Positions 10,513-59,557 of a stretch of DNA of 64,000 nt are shown here, in pieces. A program made the translations under genes and the position numbers. The stretch is taken from the NCBI GenBank assembly GCA_000004985.1, contig GG738845.1; one strand, written 5' to 3'. Origin of the DNA: Naegleria gruberi. Its lineage: Eukaryota. Every line of letters begins with the position of its first letter. Within the stretch, counting starts at the first letter, position 1. The notes under the pieces are model-generated. The model searched no databases. It was not told the origin of the DNA and saw nothing but the letters and a program-made list of their open reading frames with translations.

Positions 10513-11367
10513 ATGCAATTTTCAAAAGTTTCAAAAAAAATACAATTAAACATAATGATGCAACAACAGTCAACAACAACATCACAAGAGACCATAACAA
10601 CACCAACAACTTCCGATGCATTGTCACGAGATGAAATCGAATATAAACAGAAGGAAAAACAGCAACAATTCGATGAAGAAAAATCATTGACATCTCCGAC
10701 ATCTTTTACTACCACTACTTCTCAACAACAACAACAGAAGCAAACTTTGGACAATAAACAACAAGAAATTAATGAAAGTAATAAGACATTGAATAGTAAA
10801 GAATTATCTGGTCCTAATAAATCAAATAAATCGGAGAGTTTGGAGCATCCCATGTCTATCAAGGAATTTCTCAAGATTACAATTCTTCCTCGATGGTATT
10901 CAGTGCCCAACAAGGTGAGTGAAGCAAGAGATATGTTGGCAACAGTAAGTTTCACTCAGATGATGGAATTTTTAACTTTATAATAACAGGAAAGAACCAT
11001 GTTGAGTTGGTATAGAACTGCATTTTCAATTTTGGGTGTTGGAATTGCTGTTTCGAGGAGTAAGTTTCTATATATAAGAGTGTTTATATTGATTTATTGA
11101 TATATGATAGTGAAAAAATCTGATGGTTCTGTAATTCCAAAGGTTGTTGGAGCAATTTCATGTTCACTAGCTATGATTTTAATCATGTATGCTCATTTGA
11201 GATATTATGCAGTTATGAAATCTCTATTCGAATGTAAGTTGAAAGAGTTTTGTGTCTATATTAACTCGACAATAGATCACTTTTCTGCTGATACATTATC
11301 TCCTCCTTTCATTCTCCTTATTGGCTTGCTAATTTGTGTCATTGCTGTTCTTTTATTCTTTGTGTAA
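10513..11367 (+). CDS. DUF202 (YidH)-type three-helix membrane protein, paralog A, 4 exons: join(10513..10944,10990..11059,11111..11233,11276..11367)
   Basis: The motif RWYSVPNKVSEARDMLAT|ERTMLSWYRTAFSILGVGIAVSR is the conserved DUF202 signature. The introns are 45, 51 and 42 nt (GTAAGT/GTAAGT/GTAAGT donors, CAG/TAG/TAG acceptors), and the phases restore three hydrophobic helices. The first ATG is at 10513, since the tool's 10465 start is TTG. Confidence 0.65.
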
Positions 11368-11474
11368 ATAACCCCCTAAACTTAATTTTGATATAATAAA
11401 TTAATTTATTTAAACTCGAATTTCAGTATTATATTTACATTCTAATCAATTGGTTGTTGCTCATTTAAATTCAT

Positions 11475-12537
11475 TCAATTAACAAAGACAAGTGCCAAAG
11501 CAAGAATACACACAACCATTCCAAATAAAAACATGAAAGGAGGTGCAAATAAATCGGCCACATACATGCCACCAATCAATCGTCTTGTTGCGTATTGGAA
11601 TCGAATGAAAGAGTAAATGAAAATCAATAAACCCAAAATTACAAAAATTGTTCCAATAGAAACCATTAGAATTTTAACTTCTGCAGTATCAGACGAAGAT
11701 GTTAACACTAAAAAATCAGTACATGCATTCTCTTGAAAACTTACATTTGGAAACTGCAATACCAATTGCCACAATTGACAATGCAGTTCTAACCCAAGCT
11801 AATTGAGTTCTCTCCACAGCCAACAAATCTCTTGCTTCTGATTGTTTGTTTGGATGAAAGGTCCACCTAGGAATGAAACCCATTAAATAATCAAGAGAAT
11901 ATCTCTTATTGGATGATTGTCCTGTTATTGTAGATTCATCTTTATGATGTTGTTCCTTTTCCTCAGCTGAGGGTGACATTATAACGTCCTTCTTCTTATC
12001 AACATTAATATCTTTTAATTCAATTTCCATTAGCAAATCATCATCGGATTTTACCTCATCCGAAAGGTTATTACCACTTGTATGCATCATGACAGATCCT
12101 CCACATTGTAATTCTTCTTCTTGTGTTTCATCTAGTAATTGCAAGGATGCACCAGCGAGCTTTGATTTTGAAAAATTCATTCCTGATGATGGTGGTGGTA
12201 GTGAGGAGAAAGGTTGTAATTTTTTGTTTTCTTCTTGATTGATAATTGTCGTTATTGTATTGTCCATTTGTGTTTCATCCGATTTGGGAGTGGTTATGGT
12301 AATATCGATTATTGGCAATGATGATAATGAAGTATTGGATGCATGTTCTTCTGTTGATGATGGTAGTGATTGAGCGGCATTTTGCTTTGAATCTTCATCT
12401 TGTTGATGATGATTTATATTTGATAAGGAAGAGCTTAATTGCTCACTCCTCTCCACACTTCCTCCAAAACTCACAGACCTCTGCAAAATGGTATCAAGTC
12501 GGGGTGATGTTGTTATTGTTATTGTCGTTTGCGACAT
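11475..12537 (-). CDS. DUF202 (YidH)-type three-helix membrane protein, paralog B, 2 exons: join(11475..11707,11745..12537)
   Basis: RWTFHPNKQSEARDLLAVERTQLAWVRTALSIVAIGIAVSK|L|LTSSSDTAEVKILMVSIGTIFVILGLL... aligns residue-for-residue with paralog A. A 37-nt intron (GTAAGT...TTTTAG, phase 1) sits at exactly the same position as intron 2 of paralog A, and a long S/T/Q-rich N-terminal extension precedes the domain. Confidence 0.6.
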
Positions 12538-14095
12538 TTTTTCATCAAAAGTTACTGACTTCTGTGATTCTCAATAACAATTTCCCTTATTTTCTTCTGG
12601 CCATTATTATTGCGCCATTTTATTTGTCGGCTAAATTCAGAGCCTAAAATTTCATAATTCATATGAAATTTTGTTATGAAAACTCTAGAATAAATAAACA
12701 AGATGTTTGCTGAATGTTATTGAGGACTTTTTATATGAATTTTGTTGTTTTGGTTGTGTGTGACTAATTCATGCTCCTTAAAACCTTTTCAAAATATTAG
12801 ATTGTTCTCTTGTATCTTCTTTGAAATCTCGATAACTAGATTAGGTTGTATTTTTTTTAAAATTTTACTGAAAAACCATTATTTCAAATTCATTTTTCAA
12901 TACAAGACCTTATTAAAATCTGTCGAAGTTGAATTAGTAATTTCTTGTTGTGCTTGTTTAATTTTTTAAACTTAATATTCAATTTCTTTGTTGTGTTTGT
13001 TTAATTTTTTGTTTATTTATTTAGTTATGTTTGTTTATTTTTTTGTGGATGTTAAATTGTTTGTTGATTTTTTATGTTTTTAATTACAATAGAAAGTTGT
13101 AAAATGTAGTTTCAAATTTAAAAATTCATTTACATTATCTGATTTTAAATTCTTCTCTTCAAATCTATCAAGAGGGCGGTTAGATCAGTCTTATTTTGGC
13201 TAGAAAGATGAAGAGGTGAAAGAATTTGTTGTTTATTGTGAGCGTAAGATGATAACTTTTCAACATACTAATAATTCTTTTGTGAAGATTTTACATCTTC
13301 AATCTTCTCCTCTAATAATTGAAAATATGCCACTAATTGAAGCAGCATACAAAATGGTAAACTTAGAATCAAATTTCGTAAACACGGATAAATGAAAATG
13401 ATTAAGGCAACTACAAAATTATCAATAAAATATTCACTCTAGAAAGCGGATTCAAAGAGAAATTAAAATGCTGTCTCTTTTTATATGTCGTTGTTAGGGG
13501 CGAAATATTTGTAGTGGTTTTAATAATAAATAACAAATCATATTTAAAAGAATTAATTTGATTTTCTTGATGAAATAAAATGTGATAGGTTTGATGTTCC
13601 ATTTTTTTTAGATTCTTTTTATTCAAAAACTAAACCTCTAAAGTAATATATCCCAACCCCTTTTTGGATATTGGTGAATAAATTTATTGTAATTGAGTTG
13701 ATAAGCTAATAAATATTCGTAAAGTGATTTGACTGGGATAGATATTGGATATTAATATACTCTTTGAGAATGCAGATAGTGGTATTTCTTGGATATTGGA
13801 ATTGGTTGTCATTTAGTTTGGTACTGAAAGACATTTTCATCACACTCTTTGAGAATTGGTGAATAAAGTTTCTTCCTTTACAACGAAACTCTTAAGTACA
13901 ATAAACATGGGTTTTCCAATTTAAAATCAATCAACATTATCAAGAGGTAACAAATAATGAAATCTTGTATTTAACGGTTCTAACATTTTCCCTTAAAGTA
14001 TCCAAAATAGACCCCAATGCCTTCTTCTTTCATTGTTAAAATTTCAGTTTCCATTTGTCCATTTCATTTTCCCACTAATTTTGTTACAATAAAAA

Positions 14096-14914
14096 ATGCC
14101 TGCTATTGAAATCCACATAACACTGGCGAAAGGTAAATCTGGTAAGACAAGAATTAAAGCCTTCGCTGATGGTTATTCCGTAACCGGATATATTAAACGT
14201 GTTTCTCACGATGTTTGTGTTGTGAGAATGGAAGCAGGAAGAAAGGAAAGGATTATTGCTTGCCTTGCAGCAATTGCACAAGAATTAATGGATGACTCAA
14301 ATTTTGAATTAATATTTAGTTCTATTAAGCCGTTGTTGGGCAGAAGAGAATACAATAAATTTTCCATAATTACGGACCAACAATGGAAGAAGAATTGCCA
14401 ACTTGCTGTTTCGTCCGATGAAACTTCTATTCCCCAAACCACAGTTAATAAGGAGGTTGTGTTTCAAAAAACAAACGTTAAGAACATGTTGGAGCAAATT
14501 ATGGCAGAGATGTCTGAGAGTGACGTATCCGAGAGTGATCCAAACATAGCAAATCAACCCACTCCATCAAGACTAAAGTATTCCCTATTCGAAAACTCTA
14601 CAAAGTACGTGGTAGAAGTGTCTGCTCCCTTTATACCTATTGAGAGCATTCATGTAGAATACACACTTGGAAAACTCAGCATACAGACACAGACAATAGT
14701 TAACTCCTATCACAATGGTATGAGACCTATTCAAGAAGGCTTCAAATATGGTGGATACACTCACACTGAAATAATTCTCCCTCCTTCCGCTGGTGGATTA
14801 GATTTTGATAACATTTTTCTTGATAAGGGTATTCTAATTGTGACTGTCCTTAAAAAAAAGGTGATAAAAGAGATTCCAATAATAAAGCCACAAGATATGA
14901 AAGTTCATCAATAA
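14096..14914 (+). CDS. Hypothetical protein with C-terminal alpha-crystallin/HSP20-like domain
   Basis: It is a single 272-aa ORF. The C-terminal segment KYVVEVSAPFIPIESIHVEYTLGKLSIQ...GYTHTEIILPPSAGGLDFDNIFLDKGILIVTVLKK resembles the ACD beta-sandwich (ILPxxA...DxIKA.L.NGVLTVT pattern). Confidence 0.5.
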   Translation: MPAIEIHITLAKGKSGKTRIKAFADGYSVTGYIKRVSHDVCVVRMEAGRKERIIACLAAIAQELMDDSNFELIFSSIKPLLGRREYNKFSIITDQQWKKNCQLAVSSDETSIPQTTVNKEVVFQKTNVKNMLEQIMAEMSESDVSESDPNIANQPTPSRLKYSLFENSTKYVVEVSAPFIPIESIHVEYTLGKLSIQTQTIVNSYHNGMRPIQEGFKYGGYTHTEIILPPSAGGLDFDNIFLDKGILIVTVLKKKVIKEIPIIKPQDMKVHQ

Positions 14915-37022: not shown

Positions 37023-38139
37023 TGTCGCTTTTTCTTTCTGTTGCTTTTTACTACTATTTGATTGTTTGTTGGATTTTACAAAGAGTGATGGAGCTGTTTG
37101 GGATGTGGAATTGTGCGATTTGTTTTTAGAAATCGATTGATTGATTTACCACATTGACTTGTTGTTGGTATTTGAAATTATTTACATTAAGATGGAAAGG
37201 TGCTGAGGTGTGGTGTACATGATGATGTGTTTGTTGAGAAGATGCTCTATTGAGATATTGAAGAAGAAGTGGACAATTTTTGATGATAGGTTGTGGAAGT
37301 ACGAGTATATGTGTATCATTGTTCATGTTATTCAACACTGATTGGATGGAGGGTAGTTTTTCAATAGTACATGAATTGGACATGCTGCTAATATTGGTTT
37401 GATTGAGGCGATTCGATGGATGTACCACATGCAAGCAACATGAATCATGTAAACAAGGATCTTGTTGAGGATGAAAAGGATTCTGAACTGAGGATGTATA
37501 TTGAACAGTATGTAGAAATGGAACCCTAGCAGAATCAGCTCCCTCACTATTTTTCATTGCTATTAATCAGGTCAAATATTGTTGTTTTTTCTCTAATCAT
37601 TCAAGATCATTCAAAACACCAACCCAAGTCTCTGTAAATCCTCATTGGTTGGCCGCTTAATTGTTAACAAATAATAAGCTAATGATTGGATTGTGAACCC
37701 GGTACCAACACTAAATTGTCCAGATAAGGTGTTTGGTGGACAAATGTAAAAGTTTGATCCTACAAACATTTAATTTCAAGTAAATACATTTTTCCTAATA
37801 AGCAATTACTGAAAATTAAGGAGGCAGAGAATCGTTTTTATGGCGTTTTTAAAATTGTAGTCGTAAATGATAACAAGCGCTGATCTTTAAAGTTTGAGTC
37901 TTACTAAAATCCAAAGCACATTTTGAGGTCAACCAAGGTCATCATTCCAATTTCCTAATTTGTCCTCTTGAACAATACAAAATGAAAACGATTATTTATT
38001 TAATGCTGTCGTCTTCACTTATTCAACGTTGTAACATTACCAATCGATTATCATCGATTTATTATGATGATTTTTCATATCTCTCGGAGTAAGTTTGTAA
38101 CTAATCACACATTCATGCTTTTTTGATTTTTTAAATTTG

Positions 38140-45394: not shown

Positions 45395-48046
45395 ATGAAG
45401 AAAACAAGTCCAGCATCAAGTAATTCAAAAGTGCAAAGCAAACTCTCCTTCAAAAAGCCGACCCCAACTTCCTCTACGGAAGAAAAGAAAATTCCAACAC
45501 CCAATGATAAGAATAATGTAATAGTTTTAGAGGATGATGAATTTGATGATATTGATTTTAGTGACGTTATTAGTGATAAATCTCCACCACCACCACCAAT
45601 GAGTTCATCACAACAAGGAGGTTCATCCCAAACATTTATCATACCAAAGAATCACTCGGTGAAACCTGCTCTTAAATTATCACAACCTTCGGGATCCCGA
45701 AGTAATAATAATACTTTAAAATCATCAGAAGCCTCTTCTTTAACAATAGAATCCTTCAATATTGACAGTGATGAAGATATTGAAAAATCAATGCACTTGA
45801 CTTTGAAAAAGTATTTTAAATTGGAAGAATTTCGTCCAAATCAATTTGAAATTATTTTCAATCTTGTTAAAAACAAACAAGATACACTTGTCATATTACC
45901 TACTGGTGGTGGTAAAAGTTTATGTTATCAATTACCTTCATTAATTTTACCTGGTGTTACTCTTGTTGTTTCTCCATTGATTTCTTTAATGCACAATCAA
46001 GTACAAGCACTTGATCATTTATCAATTCCTTCAAATTATTGGAATTCAAGTCAGAAAAAGTCAGAAATTCAAAAAATTCAATCAGATTTAGAATCTGGAA
46101 ATCCAAATTACAAACTTTTATATGTAACACCTGAATTATTAACAAGTAATCAAACATTTCAATCTATAATGAGATTATTAGCGAGTAGAGATCAATTATC
46201 TTTAATAGCTATCGATGAATCACATTGTATTTCATCATGGTAAGTAGTAATAGTTGTGTTTAAATAATTTCAAACTCTTTTAGGGGACATGATTTTAGAA
46301 AATCATTCAGACAATTGAATTTCCTCAAAGATACATTTCCTCAAGTTCCAATTATTGCCTTAACTGCAACTGCAACTGAAAAAGTAAGATCAGATATTGT
46401 TGAAAGTCTGAAAATGAGAAATCCTAAATGCTTTATTACCTCATTCAACAGACCTAATATTTCATATGAAATTAGATATAAGGATATATTACATAATCCA
46501 TATGAAGATTTACGTAATTTTTTAAATGAACATGCCCAAGAATGTGGTATTATTTATTGTAGAACTAGAAATCAAGTCGATGAACTTGTATTACAATTAT
46601 CAATGGAAAAGGATAAAGGTGGTAAAGACTTGTTCTCATGTAAATCATATCATGCTGGATTGAAATTGAGCGAAAGAAAAACAGTTCAAACTGATTGGTT
46701 AGAAGGAAAAACTAAAATAATTGTTGGTACAATTGCTTATGGTATGGGTATTGATAAGAAGGATGTTAGATTTGTTGTAGTAAGTTTTTGTGAATTTTTC
46801 ATTATCTTGAGTTTAGAACCTCTCACATTTTATTACCCAACTGCTTCTTTTTTTACATTTTAGCACTATGGTATGCCAAAATCATTAGAAGGATTTTATC
46901 AAGAGTCAGGAAGAGCTGGTAGAGATGGTAAAAAAGCTAAAAGTTTGCTCTATTATTGTAGTAGAGAAAAGAATTCAATTCAATTCTTAATTTCTAGAGA
47001 AGAAAAATTAACTCAGGATCGTATTCTTGCTGTTGAACAGGTAAGTAACTTCATATGATTGGGAGTTCATTCTACTTCTTTAGGGGTTTAATAAGGTTTG
47101 TGAAATGTGTGAAACTGCTTGTTGTAGAAGAAAATTTGTATTGGAATTCTTTGGTGAAAGTTATGATCCGGCAAAACCTCATGGAATCACAACTGTCACA
47201 TCACCTATTAAATCTAAACAACAACAACAACCAAAACAATCCAATGTTAAGGCAACACTTAAATTATCAAAACCAAATACAACATTAGCACCATCAACAC
47301 CACCTAAAAAGACATCTAATCAACCATCTAAAAGTGGTGTTATTGAAATAATTCCACAAATTAAGGGTGTTGAATATGTAGAAACTTGTTGTGATTATTG
47401 TGCAAACCCAAAGAAGAAGGCTGAGGAAATTAATAATGCATCATTTACTTATAATCCAAGAAGTGGAGGTGGTAGTGGTGGTGGTGGATTAGGCACCAAA
47501 ATGGCAGATGAATTTATTGCTTCTGCAAGTGAATTCGACGATGCTATTGAAGAATTTCACGATGATGATTATGATGAATTTGATGGATTAGATATGGAAG
47601 AAGCAAGAAGATCAGAAGAACGTGATCAAAACTCATTCATTAATAGATATAGGAAACAAATGGGAATAACTGATAATTCAATGATAACTCGATCAAGTCA
47701 TACACTCACAAAAACAAAACCAACTCCACAACAAGTGGAATTGAAACGAAAAAGAATGGAAGATAGTATTGATAATGTTTTAGATGCATTAGAAAAAGAA
47801 GAAAAGAAACAAAAGAGATCTTACAGTAAGAGTAAGAGTTCACTATTACCTTCCAAATCAAGTAGTTCCAACAATTTTGATTTGTCAAATAGTGGCGCTA
47901 GTGGTAGTGGTGGTGGTGGATTTGTTAAAGCAAGTACACTCCTTCCCACAACATCATCATATCGATCATCAGAGATGAGTAATCGATCCAAGACAACAAC
48001 AAATAGACCAAAGAGCAATTTGGAACGATTCATGTCAAAGAAGTAA
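45395..48046 (+). CDS. RecQ-family ATP-dependent DNA helicase, 4 exons: join(45395..46239,46284..46779,46864..47040,47084..48046), about 826 aa
   Basis: Helicase motifs are present: [17 protein letters not shown] (I), DESHCISSW|GHDFR (II, split by intron 1 in phase 2), [41 protein letters not shown]|[22 protein letters not shown] (VI), and the RQC zinc motif [20 protein letters not shown]. All donors are GTAAGT and the acceptors are YAG. Confidence 0.85.
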
Positions 48047-54574: not shown

Positions 54575-56187
54575 TTATTCATCATCATCATCCTCTTCCT
54601 CTTGTTCTTCAATTTCATCCTCTTCTACTTCCTCTGCTTCATCATCCATAAAATCTTCCTCATTAGGTAATGATTTAGTAATATCATAATTTGAAATATC
54701 ATCTTCTTGATTGGATTTTCTTATAACAATAAAATCTTCAAGTGATTCATGTTGATTGAAAATATCATCATCTTCATCTAACATGGTTTCTTTTGGACTT
54801 TCAGCTGCCAAACTTTCCTCAAATACTTGTTCAATTGGATCATTATCATCCTCCATTAAGACAATTGGTTTTTTCTTCTTTTTGGATGATTCAGTTTTAT
54901 CTTTCTTTTTCTTCTTTTTCTTTTCAGTTTCTTCCTCTTCTTCATTTTCATCTGATTTCTTTTTCTTCTTCTTTTTCTTTTTCTTTTCTTCACCATCATC
55001 ATCATCTTGGTCATCTTGATCTGATTTTTTCTTTTTCTTCTTTTTCTTCTTCTTTGGTTCTTCCTCTTCTTCATTATCTTCATTTTCCTCTGATTTCTTC
55101 TTCTTTTTCTTTTTCTTTTCAGATTTTTTCTTTTTCTTTTTAGGTTCATCCTCTTCCTCATTATCATCATGTTGTACTTCCTCTTCATTTTCATCATTCT
55201 CATCATTCTCATCATCTCCAGGTGTTCTCTTTCTCTTTTTCTTATCTGATGATGATGAATCAATTAATTGTGAATAAAAATGTTGAGATGAAGCCTCCTT
55301 TCCAGTAACATCTCTATCAGTAATAACAGAAATGGTAATTGCATTTTCAACACCATTTTGTTTTAAAATGACTTTGGTTTTTAAATTACAAGATTCCAAA
55401 TCCTTTTTAATTTTTGGAATAATTTTAGCTAAACTCTTATTTAAAGATAATTTTCTATCAATACAAATAGTTTGAACTTGTCTATTAGCTCTATTTAAAT
55501 TTGTAAATATTTTTATAACAATTTCCTTATTAATTTTTAAATATTTTCCTAAAAATCTAATTAATTTTAAAAAATTATTTAATAATAATTTAGAACCCAT
55601 TAAAGTTGCTTGTAATAATTGTGGTGTTGATTTTACACTTTTAGTAAGTGATGTTAAAAGTTTATAAAAATTTATAACTTGAAGAATTCGTTTTAAATTT
55701 TTTGTTACTTGATTTTCTTTCCATTCCAATAATTCTTGATTTGATATTTTATTTGATAATTCAATAAATATCTTTTTTATACATATTGGTATGGTTATTT
55801 TAGTTATATTTGGAAAATTAAAATCTAAATGTTGTTTAGGTTCATTGCTTTCATTATTTTCATCATTTAATTTCTCTTTTAAACATTCAATTAATTCACT
55901 TGTTCCTGTAATCCAACTTCCAAATGAAATTAAACCAGAAATTAAATTACCAAGTGATTCACTTTTAATAATACTTGGAAATGGTGTTTGTAATAAATGT
56001 TTAGATATTCCTTGTAAATCAATTTTTAATTTTGTTATATCACTTTTAATTACAATAGATTTTAATAATTCAAATAATTTATAACAAATATCAAATGTAT
56101 TTAATTCTAATATTAATTCTTTAATAGAATTATAAAATATTTCAATTAATTCTTCTGAATCTTTATCTGCTAAATCATTATCATCCA

Positions 56188-56218
<31 letters not shown>

Positions 56219-59200
56219 ATTTGATAATAATAATAAATTAATAATTCTATTAAATTCATCTTTAAAATGATCAAATATTTTCAATATAATATCAATTAAT
56301 AATTGAAAACAAGGTGTAATATATTCATTATTTAATTCATTATCATCAGATTCATCCTCAATTGATTGTTTAATTGAATCTTTTGATATAATTTTAATAT
56401 ATTTATATAAATATGGTAATATATTAAATAACATTTCATAAAAATCATTGGTATTAATTCTATTTAAATTATAATGATTTTCCTTTTCTTTACTTGTAAA
56501 GAATGTTGTTTTACTTCTAGCAATAACTGATTTTAATTTACTTTGTAAATCTTCAATAATATAAAATAATTGTACAGGTTGTAATGAAGAATTATTATTA
56601 TCAGTATTATTATCATCGTTATTATCATCGTTATTACTTGTTGTTGCATTATTATTATATTTAATAATATTAATAACAGATAAATCTAATTCTCTGTAAT
56701 GAATTTTTAAATTTGATAAATATTTTCTCTTAGATGGTAAACTAATATATTCACTTGATGATTTTGAACTAGTAGTAGTAGTTTCATTTTCTTGTTCATC
56801 TTCATCTTGTTCTTCATCATTATCATCTTGATCATCTTCATCTGATTTCTTCTTCTTTTTCTTTTTACTATCTGTATTAGTTGTTGTTGCCATTGTTGTT
56901 GTTGTTGTAGTGGTAGTATTTGCAATTATAGTAGTATTAGTACCTATAGTAGGTAAATGAAATGTTAAATTCATTGATAAACATTTATCAAGTGTTTTTT
57001 CTAATAAATTTATATTTTCAATTCTTTCCAATATATATTTAATATTATTATTATTATTCATAACATTATTTTGTTCATTATTTTCATTTTCATATTTTCA
57101 TCATTTTCATCTTGTGCTCCAACATTAAAAGTAAAACCATTTAAAATTTCTCTAAACCAATTAATAGTAAAAAATAAACCTGTACAAATTAAATCCTTTT
57201 CCTTTCTATTGTAATGTTTAAAATTTAATAAAATATCATCCAAATCAAATAATACAACTCCTGATTGTAATAAAAAATTAGAATAATCACTTTTTAATTT
57301 ATCCATTACAATTTTCATTAATCTAAATTGTGAAAATAAATTCCAAATACTTTCATCTTCCTTCTCTAATAGAGGTAATATATTTACCAGTTGTTGTGAA
57401 TTTTCAATTGAAAATTGAATTTTATAATCAAAATAATTTGATTTTAGTTTTTTTAAATCAGATTTTTCAATAATAAATCTTTGAAAAAAATCATGAATTA
57501 ATCTTGTTTGAATTTCTTGTAATAATCTTTCATCTAAATTTCTTTCTTTTATAATAAAACATAATTCATCATATAATAATGTTTTAAATATTGGAATTTT
57601 ATAACAACATTTTAATGAAAAATCTAATAATTCAATACATTGTTCATATTCTTCATTATTTAAATTTTGTTGATTATAATTATTTAATAAATTATTTGTC
57701 TTGTTATTATTACTATTATTACTAATATTACTTGTATTTAAATTATTTAAATTATTAAATTGATTAAAATTACTACCAATAATAGATAAAATAGTACATG
57801 AACCAATAATACCCATTTTTTTAAAATTAAAATTAGTATTACTTAATTGTTTTCTAATAATGATCATTAATTCATCTCTTGTTCTTGTATTATTATTATT
57901 TGAATGATTCAATGTTTTTGTAAATGATAGAATTGAAAATAATTTATAAACTTTTCTCAATTGTTGATCTGTTAAATTTGTTAAAGAATCAATTAAAACT
58001 TGAAAAAAACTTGAATAATTTCTTAAAATTGATAATTTTGTATATGAAATTGATAATAAAACATCGAGTGATGAATCTTTTTCAATTTTAGAATTACTTC
58101 CAACATGTGTTATTAGTGATTGAATTATTTTTTGTCTATTATAATCATTTTTAACATTTTCAATTATTTTACGATGTCTAATACCAGTTGATATGGCACT
58201 CACTAGAAGTGATTCACATTGTAGTGATGATGATGATGAGGATGATGAATTATTACTATCTATAAATTGTTTACCTTTCCTTTTTTGTTGTTGTGTTGAA
58301 TAGAATTCTTCATCTTGTTCATCAATCATTGTTGTTGTTTTACCTTTACCTTTAAAAGTACTATTATTACCACTTAATATTAATGAAGTATTGTTATCAT
58401 TCTCATTATCATCATCATTGTCATGTAAATCATTTTCATCATTTTCATTATTTCCACCAAGTGATGAAATATCCAAATCCTTTCTAATACCCTGTACAAC
58501 AGATTTAATATTATCATCATTTGTTGATTGTAATAAAAATCTGATAATGACAGGTAAATCAGATAGAGAAGCAGAATTTAAATTTCTTAAAACTCTATCA
58601 ATAGTTTCATTTAAAATTTCCTTTTTTAAATTTAAATTTGATAAGGCATCAATGACACATGTTGTCATTTCAGATTTATCTTGCATTACTTGATCTAATT
58701 TTTCAACAATATTATCATGTTCTGAATCATCAATAATTTCAGGTATTGCTGATATTAATTCTTTTGTAAATTCAATAGATGATATTTGTAATAGTGTATT
58801 TAAATGTTCTGTTAACTTTTTAGAATCTACAATCAAATCTAACCAACGCATTTGTGATATTATTAATTTTGGTATATTTTTATCCCATTGTTCATATAAT
58901 TCCTCTTCATAATCTTGACATTTATTTAATAATTCTTCAAATAATATTTCAATTATATTCATTTGTATTGTTGATATATTTAATAGTAATTTAAAAAATG
59001 ATTCATTAGATGAAAAATATGTTCCACTTCCTTCATTTGTACTATATTTTTAAATAATTAATTAATTATTATTATTATTAATAATGTTAATTTAAATTTA
59101 AATAGTAGTATTAAATGACAATTGACAAGATGATCAAATTATTATTATTATTTTTACAATAAAACAATAACATGATAATAACAAACCTTTCTAATGGAAC

Positions 59201-59557
59201 AAGACAAAGACAGAAAAAGTATTCATCTTCGATCATTGATTTTAAAGCAAAACAAAAGTTTTCAATATCTGTTTTTGTTCTTCTTGCAACTTCCTTTTCA
59301 ATATGTCTTCTTAATAACATGGCATCTTTAACTTGAAATGAAGAAATTGAACTAAAACTTGATTTCTTTTTTGATCCGATAGTAATTTTACCAAATTGTA
59401 TTTCATTAAATGGTGGAAGATTTAATCCACCATCACATAACAATCCATAAAACTTTTTAATATGTTGAGAAATTGATGCATTATTACCACTTCCTGATGC
59501 AGAAGAAGATGAACCACTACTACCACTGCTTGTGGATGAGGCTTTTTGTGGAGGCAT
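54575..59557 (-). CDS. fancd2: FANCD2 orthologue: exon 1 59187..59557, a 145-nt intron, exon 2 from 59041 downward. The frame shifts in an (AAT)n tract at about 57058-57075 and the ORF then continues to 54575
   Basis: NIPKLIISQMRWLDLIVDSKKLTEHL...DLPVIIRFLLQS aligns with human FANCD2 [26 protein letters not shown]...DLPVIIKFILHS. Other matched blocks are MIIIRKQLSNTNFNFKKMGIIGS with [34 protein letters not shown] with NWFREIVNAF, and exon 1 ENFCFALKSMIEDEYFFCLCLVP with [23 protein letters not shown]. The intron has GTTTGT donor and ATATAG acceptor in phase 2. The conserved IKYILERIENINLLEKTL (human LKHIVELQIILEKYL) lies in a different frame from the upstream MKMKIMNKI. Confidence 0.8.

Follow-up and report, generated by a model that had tools for sequence, protein, structure and literature searches.

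FANCD2 Locus and Public Gene Model

We analyzed a 64,000-nt window of contig GG738845.1 from the Naegleria gruberi assembly GCA_000004985.1, which covers the N. gruberi FANCD2 locus on the minus strand at 59557–54575 and holds one FANCD2 homolog. Exhaustive searching with HMMER recovered a public model of 99% identity, XP_002683637.1 / EFC50893.1 (NAEGRDRAFT_61701; 1028 aa), which could be rebuilt exactly from the window with exons at 59557–59187, 59041–59028, 58913–57639, 56943–56433, and 55490–54575.

Exon 1 (59557–59187, minus strand) starts with the ATG at 59557 and comprises 123 codons and a further 2 nt; its product matches residues 1–123 of XP_002683637.1 with 100% identity and is homologous to the N-terminus of the N. 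fowleri FANCD2. The original prediction presented this 5′ exon as newly recognized; the exon is real, but it was already part of the public model. It is followed by a 145-nt intron (59186–59042, GTTTGT...ATATAG), the removal of which yields ...CLVPLESTNEGSGTYFSSNESFFKLLLNISTIQ, matching ...CLIPFESGEGNVSFSSNESFFKMLLNISTIQ in N. fowleri. Intron 1 is the only intron of XP_002683637.1 that is backed by N. fowleri homology.

The remainder of the gene would constitute a single large exon 2, which is read in two frames. Its upstream part (59041–57094, minus strand) ends with ...GAQDENDEN and holds 663 open codons; its downstream part (57093–54575) holds 840 open codons and terminates with the stop codon at 54577–54575. 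As open reading frames, these appear as an upstream ORF at 58962–57058 (634 aa from its first ATG), which ends with ...NMKMKIMNKIML or, in a longer view, ...GAQDENDENMKMKIMNKIML before its stop, and a downstream ORF at 57061–54575 (828 aa), which lies in a different frame and starts with MNNNNNIKYILERIEN. The two ORFs share an ATGA overlap. The 663 and 840 open codons persist despite a G+C content of only ~18–26%, and stop-free stretches of this length in AT-rich DNA indicate that both halves are still coding sequence.

The upstream ORF includes MIIIRKQLSNT, the predicted counterpart of the conserved monoubiquitination-site motif, which is identical in N. fowleri, Willaertia magna, and Mytilus, and the lysine of IRKQLS is presumably the equivalent of human K561.

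The public model handles the change of frame by means of a 695-nt (3n+2) intron at 57638–56944, which spans the break and removes ~232 conserved codons that are 50–57% identical to the FANCD2 proteins of N. fowleri and W. magna. The sequence thus read, the public model conceals the frame break within a false intron, and the 695-nt intron resembles the false introns by which frameshift artifacts in other draft assemblies have been bridged. XP_002683637.1 has two further predicted introns, both in frame, at 59027–58914 (114 nt) and 56432–55491 (942 nt) on the minus strand, which remove 38 and 314 codons with counterparts in the FANCD2 proteins of N. fowleri and W. magna. These two introns are almost certainly false, judging from this conservation. 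The public model would therefore be short by ~585 conserved residues, since the predictor bridged a one-base break and added two in-frame false introns, and the corrected N. gruberi FANCD2 is almost certainly a protein of ~1612 aa, encoded by a gene with one real intron, rather than 1028 aa.

Homology Across the Junction

The Pfam FancD2 profile (PF14631) matches the upstream ORF at profile positions 469–817 (E 6e-76, 256.3 bits) and the downstream ORF at positions 812–1409 (E 2.5e-23, 82.0 bits), exceeding the gathering cut-off of 27 bits on both sides of the break. Because these profile coordinates are contiguous, no exon is missing and the frame truly changes at the junction, which bears out the original prediction that two halves in different frames carry uninterrupted FANCD2 homology and that the gene is otherwise intact on both sides. 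Once one base is restored, whichever base it is, a separate profile built from 61 FANCD2 homologs matches in a single domain across the junction (profile 412–1382, ~617 bits). The gene does not resemble a decayed pseudogene, as it has one break, long open stretches on either side, and a full-length profile match.

The sequence MKMKIMNKI, at the end of the upstream frame, had been equated with human EMKGKVLTR. Pairwise phmmer searches against chicken and human FANCD2 do reproduce this pairing, with DENMKMKIMNKI aligned to DAEMKGKVLTRL, but in the family profile of 61 FANCD2 homologs these residues form a lineage-specific insertion, and it is NNNIKYILERIENI that aligns with the conserved helix (kgkvlkRlknl), including its strongly conserved Arg. 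No MKxK motif is found at the junction in the nearest relatives, N. fowleri and W. magna. We regard the likeness of MKMKIMNKI to the vertebrate helix as a probable low-complexity coincidence.

The comparison with sister species, which had been proposed as a check on the junction, was made with N. fowleri (XP_044560405.1 and the Logan ORF P0154) and W. magna (KAL9656234.1). Their FANCD2 proteins belong to the same family and have the same architecture as that of N. gruberi, with 57–62% identity over the upstream half and 50–57% around the junction. Both read the junction in one frame. In N. fowleri P0154, which comes from an independent Logan contig, exon 2 is a single uninterrupted ORF of 1495 codons that includes ...NWFRELLNGFVDDERCNSALLERIETLNFLEKHLDLCLSKHPTFHLP..., and there is no intron at the junction in this ORF. 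In W. magna P0005 (1665 aa), ...NWFRELINGFATSSDFQSIGSVIKRIEHLVDIEKKLDKCL... and the stretch from NWFRE to KRIEHL are likewise in a single frame. N. gruberi differs from these relatives by a low-complexity, lineage-specific insertion of ~22 D/E/N-rich residues, flanked by NGFTF and IKYILER, within which the break is situated.

Position of the Frame Break

The two frames can be joined by the gain of one base or the loss of two, by an intron of 3n+2 length, or by a shift of −1. The last stop of the downstream frame is the TGA at 57100–57098, and the upstream frame is closed by the TGA at 57060–57058; a single-base change can join the frames only between these stops, at 57100–57058 on the minus strand. 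The original prediction placed the break inside an (AAT)5 microsatellite. This microsatellite (57058–57044) encodes NNNNN in the downstream frame and lies 3′ of the break; the upstream-frame TGA sits 5′ of the repeat and shares only its first base with it. Because the TGA precedes the repeat, a 1-nt error in the AAT repeat, which had been offered as a cause, cannot repair the gene.

The likeliest break site is found ~35–50 nt upstream of (AAT)5, in another repeat with a 9-nt, three-codon unit, GATGAAAAT. Two perfect copies, encoding DEN DEN, can be read directly at 57111–57094, and they are followed at 57093–57086 by a third copy of 8 nt, ATGAAAAT, of which the first base is missing, so that the order is GATGAAAAT GATGAAAAT -ATGAAAAT. 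Tandem Repeats Finder reports the same tract at 57084–57111 with a period of 9, 3.2 copies, and 10% indels. Codon usage points to the same place. Scored as log-odds with the FANCD2 gene's own codon usage, the upstream-frame codons at 57093–57061 (ATG AAA ATG AAA ATA ATG AAC AAA ATA ATG TTA) sum to approximately −7.9 bits, and the downstream-frame codons at 57091–57059 (GAA AAT GAA AAT AAT GAA CAA AAT AAT GTT ATG) to approximately +7.8 bits, an advantage of ~16 bits for an early frame switch. Early and late switch points receive the same score from the family profile (875.4–875.6 bits), global alignments to the relatives tie between the repaired product and that of a 41-nt splice, and homology alone is uninformative on the position of the break. 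The most probable site, from repeat parsimony and 11–12 codons that are not independent of one another, is at about 57094/57093, and the exact base is to be read with this in mind.

The junction as assembled reads GATGAAAATGATGAAAATATGAAAATG, and adding one base gives DENDENDENENNEQNNVMNNNNNIKYILER, which contains no stop. When a G is restored between 57094 and 57093, the product is a protein of 1612 aa that includes ...GAQDENDENDENENNEQNNVMNNNNNIKYILERIENINLLEKTL..., and the k-mer that marks the junction changes from AATGATGAAAATATGAAAATGAAAAT (as assembled) to AATGATGAAAATGATGAAAATGAAAAT. Deleting AT at 57093–92 is equally effective in joining the frames. The tail of the upstream ORF, MKMKIMNKIML and its stop (57093–57058), would then be what results when (G)AT GAA AAT GAA AAT AAT GAA CAA AAT AAT GTT ATG A is read out of frame.

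A Possible Intron at the Junction

The statement that no GT/AG pair can make an intron at this spot does not hold. A GT at 57064 and an AG at 57024 delimit a candidate micro-intron (57064–57024, minus strand; GTTATG...GGAAAG) of 41 nt, a length of the form 3n+2, and this pair, the only phase-compatible one that keeps the conserved flanks, leaves no stop when removed. If the sequence is correct and this is a spliceosomal intron, splicing would join AACAAAATAAT to AATTGAAAATATAAAT (AACAAAATAAT/AATTGAAAAT) and restore the frame as ...DENMKMKIMNKIIIENINLLEKTL.... On the family profile, splicing yields a product that gains 4 bits over that of base restoration (879.5 vs. 875.4 bits), and this product retains the MKMKIMNKI stretch that pairwise phmmer pairs with vertebrate MKGKVLTRL. 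The length is no bar either, as introns of 44 and 73 nt occur elsewhere in the window. The 44-nt intron (46240–46283, plus strand; GTAAGT...TTTTAG) restores a RecQ motif, and the 73-nt intron (20560–20488, minus strand; GTAAGT...TTTTAG) restores the RFC Walker A motif LLLYGPPGTGKTS; these introns show that introns of ~44 nt are spliced in N. gruberi.

Despite these points, we consider the micro-intron unlikely. Its donor, GTTATG, lacks both the purine at +3 and the G at +5, and its acceptor is AAG preceded by a purine-rich run, whereas the validated introns of the window have GTAAGT or GTTTGT donors and TAG acceptors, in a small sample of three. A search of the literature for a Naegleria splice-site consensus yielded nothing usable. 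The acceptor AG also falls within an AGA codon whose Arg is shared without exception by the three heteroloboseans N. gruberi, N. fowleri, and W. magna. The intron would delete ILER, of which LER is identical to N. fowleri and the Arg is a strongly conserved column of the family, with no gap between it and the TFHLP anchor downstream. The stretch that the intron would preserve, MKMK..., shows poor codon usage. No intron occupies this place in N. fowleri. Global alignment scores to the relatives tie (124 vs. 123 and 99 vs. 95), so most of the 4-bit gain comes from the insertion being shorter. Moreover, with two GT on the upstream side of the break and two AG on the downstream side, there are four possible GT/AG combinations, and chance alone is expected to make one of them phase-compatible. 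Longer GT..AG candidates of 137, 179, 194, 236, and 242 nt were rejected, as they delete conserved residues from NWFRE to LEKTL; with the 137-nt candidate, the profile score falls to 830.0 bits and the match is split.

Elsewhere in the window, in the RecQ-like gene, the sole GTAAGT...TAG candidate for a second intron is a 304-nt stretch at 46780–47083 (plus strand), which bypasses the place where the other conserved helicase motifs would be expected. At 11744–11708 (minus strand), between the overlapping open stretches 12570–11719 and 11798–11478, lies a putative intron of 37 nt whose signals are very good (GTAAGTTT...TTTTTTAG). At 37566–36789 (minus strand), two open stretches (37566–37129 and 37145–36789) lie in different frames and overlap by 17 nt in low-complexity sequence; this pair might conceal a short intron, or else the frame may break a second time here.

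Recoding and Split-Gene Explanations

Two further explanations also take the sequence as correct. Full-length FANCD2 might be produced from gene copies that are all as assembled, by a programmed −1 ribosomal frameshift or by transcriptional slippage at a non-canonical site in the A-rich DEN repeat. The locus shares with programmed −1 sites the arrangement of two long overlapping frames that need a −1 shift; both frames are open across a 40-nt overlap, and the tract has several A4 runs. Unlike such sites, it lacks a slippery heptamer and a stimulatory structure, and the arrangement is not conserved. By direct reading, no X XXY YYZ heptamer is in frame within 57100–57058, where the upstream-frame codons are GAA AAT ATG AAA ATG AAA ATA ATG AAC AAA ATA ATG TTA, and the A runs are just 4 nt long. 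The downstream 141 nt fold at −11.1 kcal/mol, no better than 200 shuffled sequences (−10.7 kcal/mol; z = −0.17), and the two-frame arrangement is present in neither N. fowleri nor W. magna. Programmed frameshifting, one of the options raised in the original prediction, is thus very improbable here; if true, it would mean that a free-living heterolobosean expresses a DNA-repair gene through recoding. Equally improbable is a gene that is truly split, with the C-terminal half translated from the ATG of ATGA (57061), either after termination-reinitiation or from a transcript of an internal promoter. The stop/start overlap is what such a gene would present, but DNA so rich in A and T should contain ATGA by chance, and codon usage has the downstream frame coding ~35 nt before the ATG at 57061. 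In addition, the relatives encode one polypeptide, and we know of no cellular eukaryotic mRNA in which reinitiation is efficient after an ORF of 790 codons. Even when taken together, recoding and a split gene deserve very little weight.

Sequence Error or Genuine Lesion

Overall, the frame break in the coding repeat most likely reflects either a one-base artifact or a lesion of a trivial kind. Both halves of the gene are intact, and the break is therefore either not real or very recent. We consider a consensus error of the 2010 Sanger draft at the low-complexity repeat more likely than a true lesion (probability of about 0.5). Under this explanation, FANCD2 would consist of a short exon 1, the 145-nt intron, and a single large exon 2, which is also the structure of the gene in N. 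fowleri, and the assembled exon 2 would be short by one base (equivalently, would carry two extra) within 57100–57058. The likeliest lost base is the G that opens the third GATGAAAAT copy, between 57094 and 57093. Its loss would set the downstream part one frame off and turn ...DENENNEQNNVM into the out-of-frame MKMKIMNKIML followed by a stop, while the cell would make a normal FANCD2 of ~1612 aa. The data show the frame break, the interval to which it is confined, the unbroken homology around it, and the single frame of the relatives; which base is affected, and that the break is an error and not an allele, we infer. The assembly of N. gruberi NEG-M is a draft from Sanger reads, and a 2023 comparison of 14 Naegleria genomes included no other genome of N. 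gruberi (PMC9928731).

A point that counts against an error is that Sanger errors do not most typically take the form of a G dropped outside a homopolymer. The N. fowleri assembly GCA_008403515.1, which is Nanopore-based, offers a comparison: on VFQX01000047 at 10560–14722, FANCD2 changes frame at least 5 times relative to the uninterrupted, Illumina-derived P0154, and the annotation divides it into two proteins (655 and 409 aa); these changes look like homopolymer indel errors of a long-read assembly. The N. gruberi gene has instead a single break, in a Sanger assembly and outside a homopolymer, and for these reasons the attribution to error is less certain than in the Nanopore assembly of N. 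fowleri.

Alternatively, the sequence may be correct and NEG-M may carry a genuine one-base deletion, possibly in one haplotype of a polyploid, heterozygous genome, an explanation that we regard as possible but do not favor. It rests on the same sequence evidence as the error explanation; the open state of both halves fits a very recent event, and one base lost in a clean non-homopolymer repeat is no classic base-calling error. Against it, N. fowleri and W. magna have kept the gene conserved and intact, and the lesion would be the single disabling one in ~4.8 kb. Such an allele would truncate FANCD2 at approximately residue 790, keeping the RKQLS ubiquitination motif while losing the C-terminal half, and would probably be null.

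Searches for contigs encoding both ORFs and P0003, together with protein and metagenome searches, found no independent N. gruberi read, transcript, or allele. Scans of metagenome contigs with degenerate patterns and exact 20-mers gave 11 chance matches, none of them related by tblastn or blastn, and exact protein look-ups gave no match either for the products of the two broken ORFs or for four hypothetical repaired versions. The word-indexed protein search missed a near-identical N. gruberi protein and the full-length models of N. fowleri, so its negatives weigh little.

Implications

The practical value of these results is curatorial and lies in a corrected gene model; neither an error nor a real lesion would surprise a specialist. 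Surveys of the Fanconi pathway across eukaryotes that include Naegleria should use the corrected FANCD2 sequence. Should the lesion prove real, NEG-M, a common laboratory strain, would have a FANCD2 allele that is null or heterozygous-null, which would be relevant to DNA-damage experiments with this strain.
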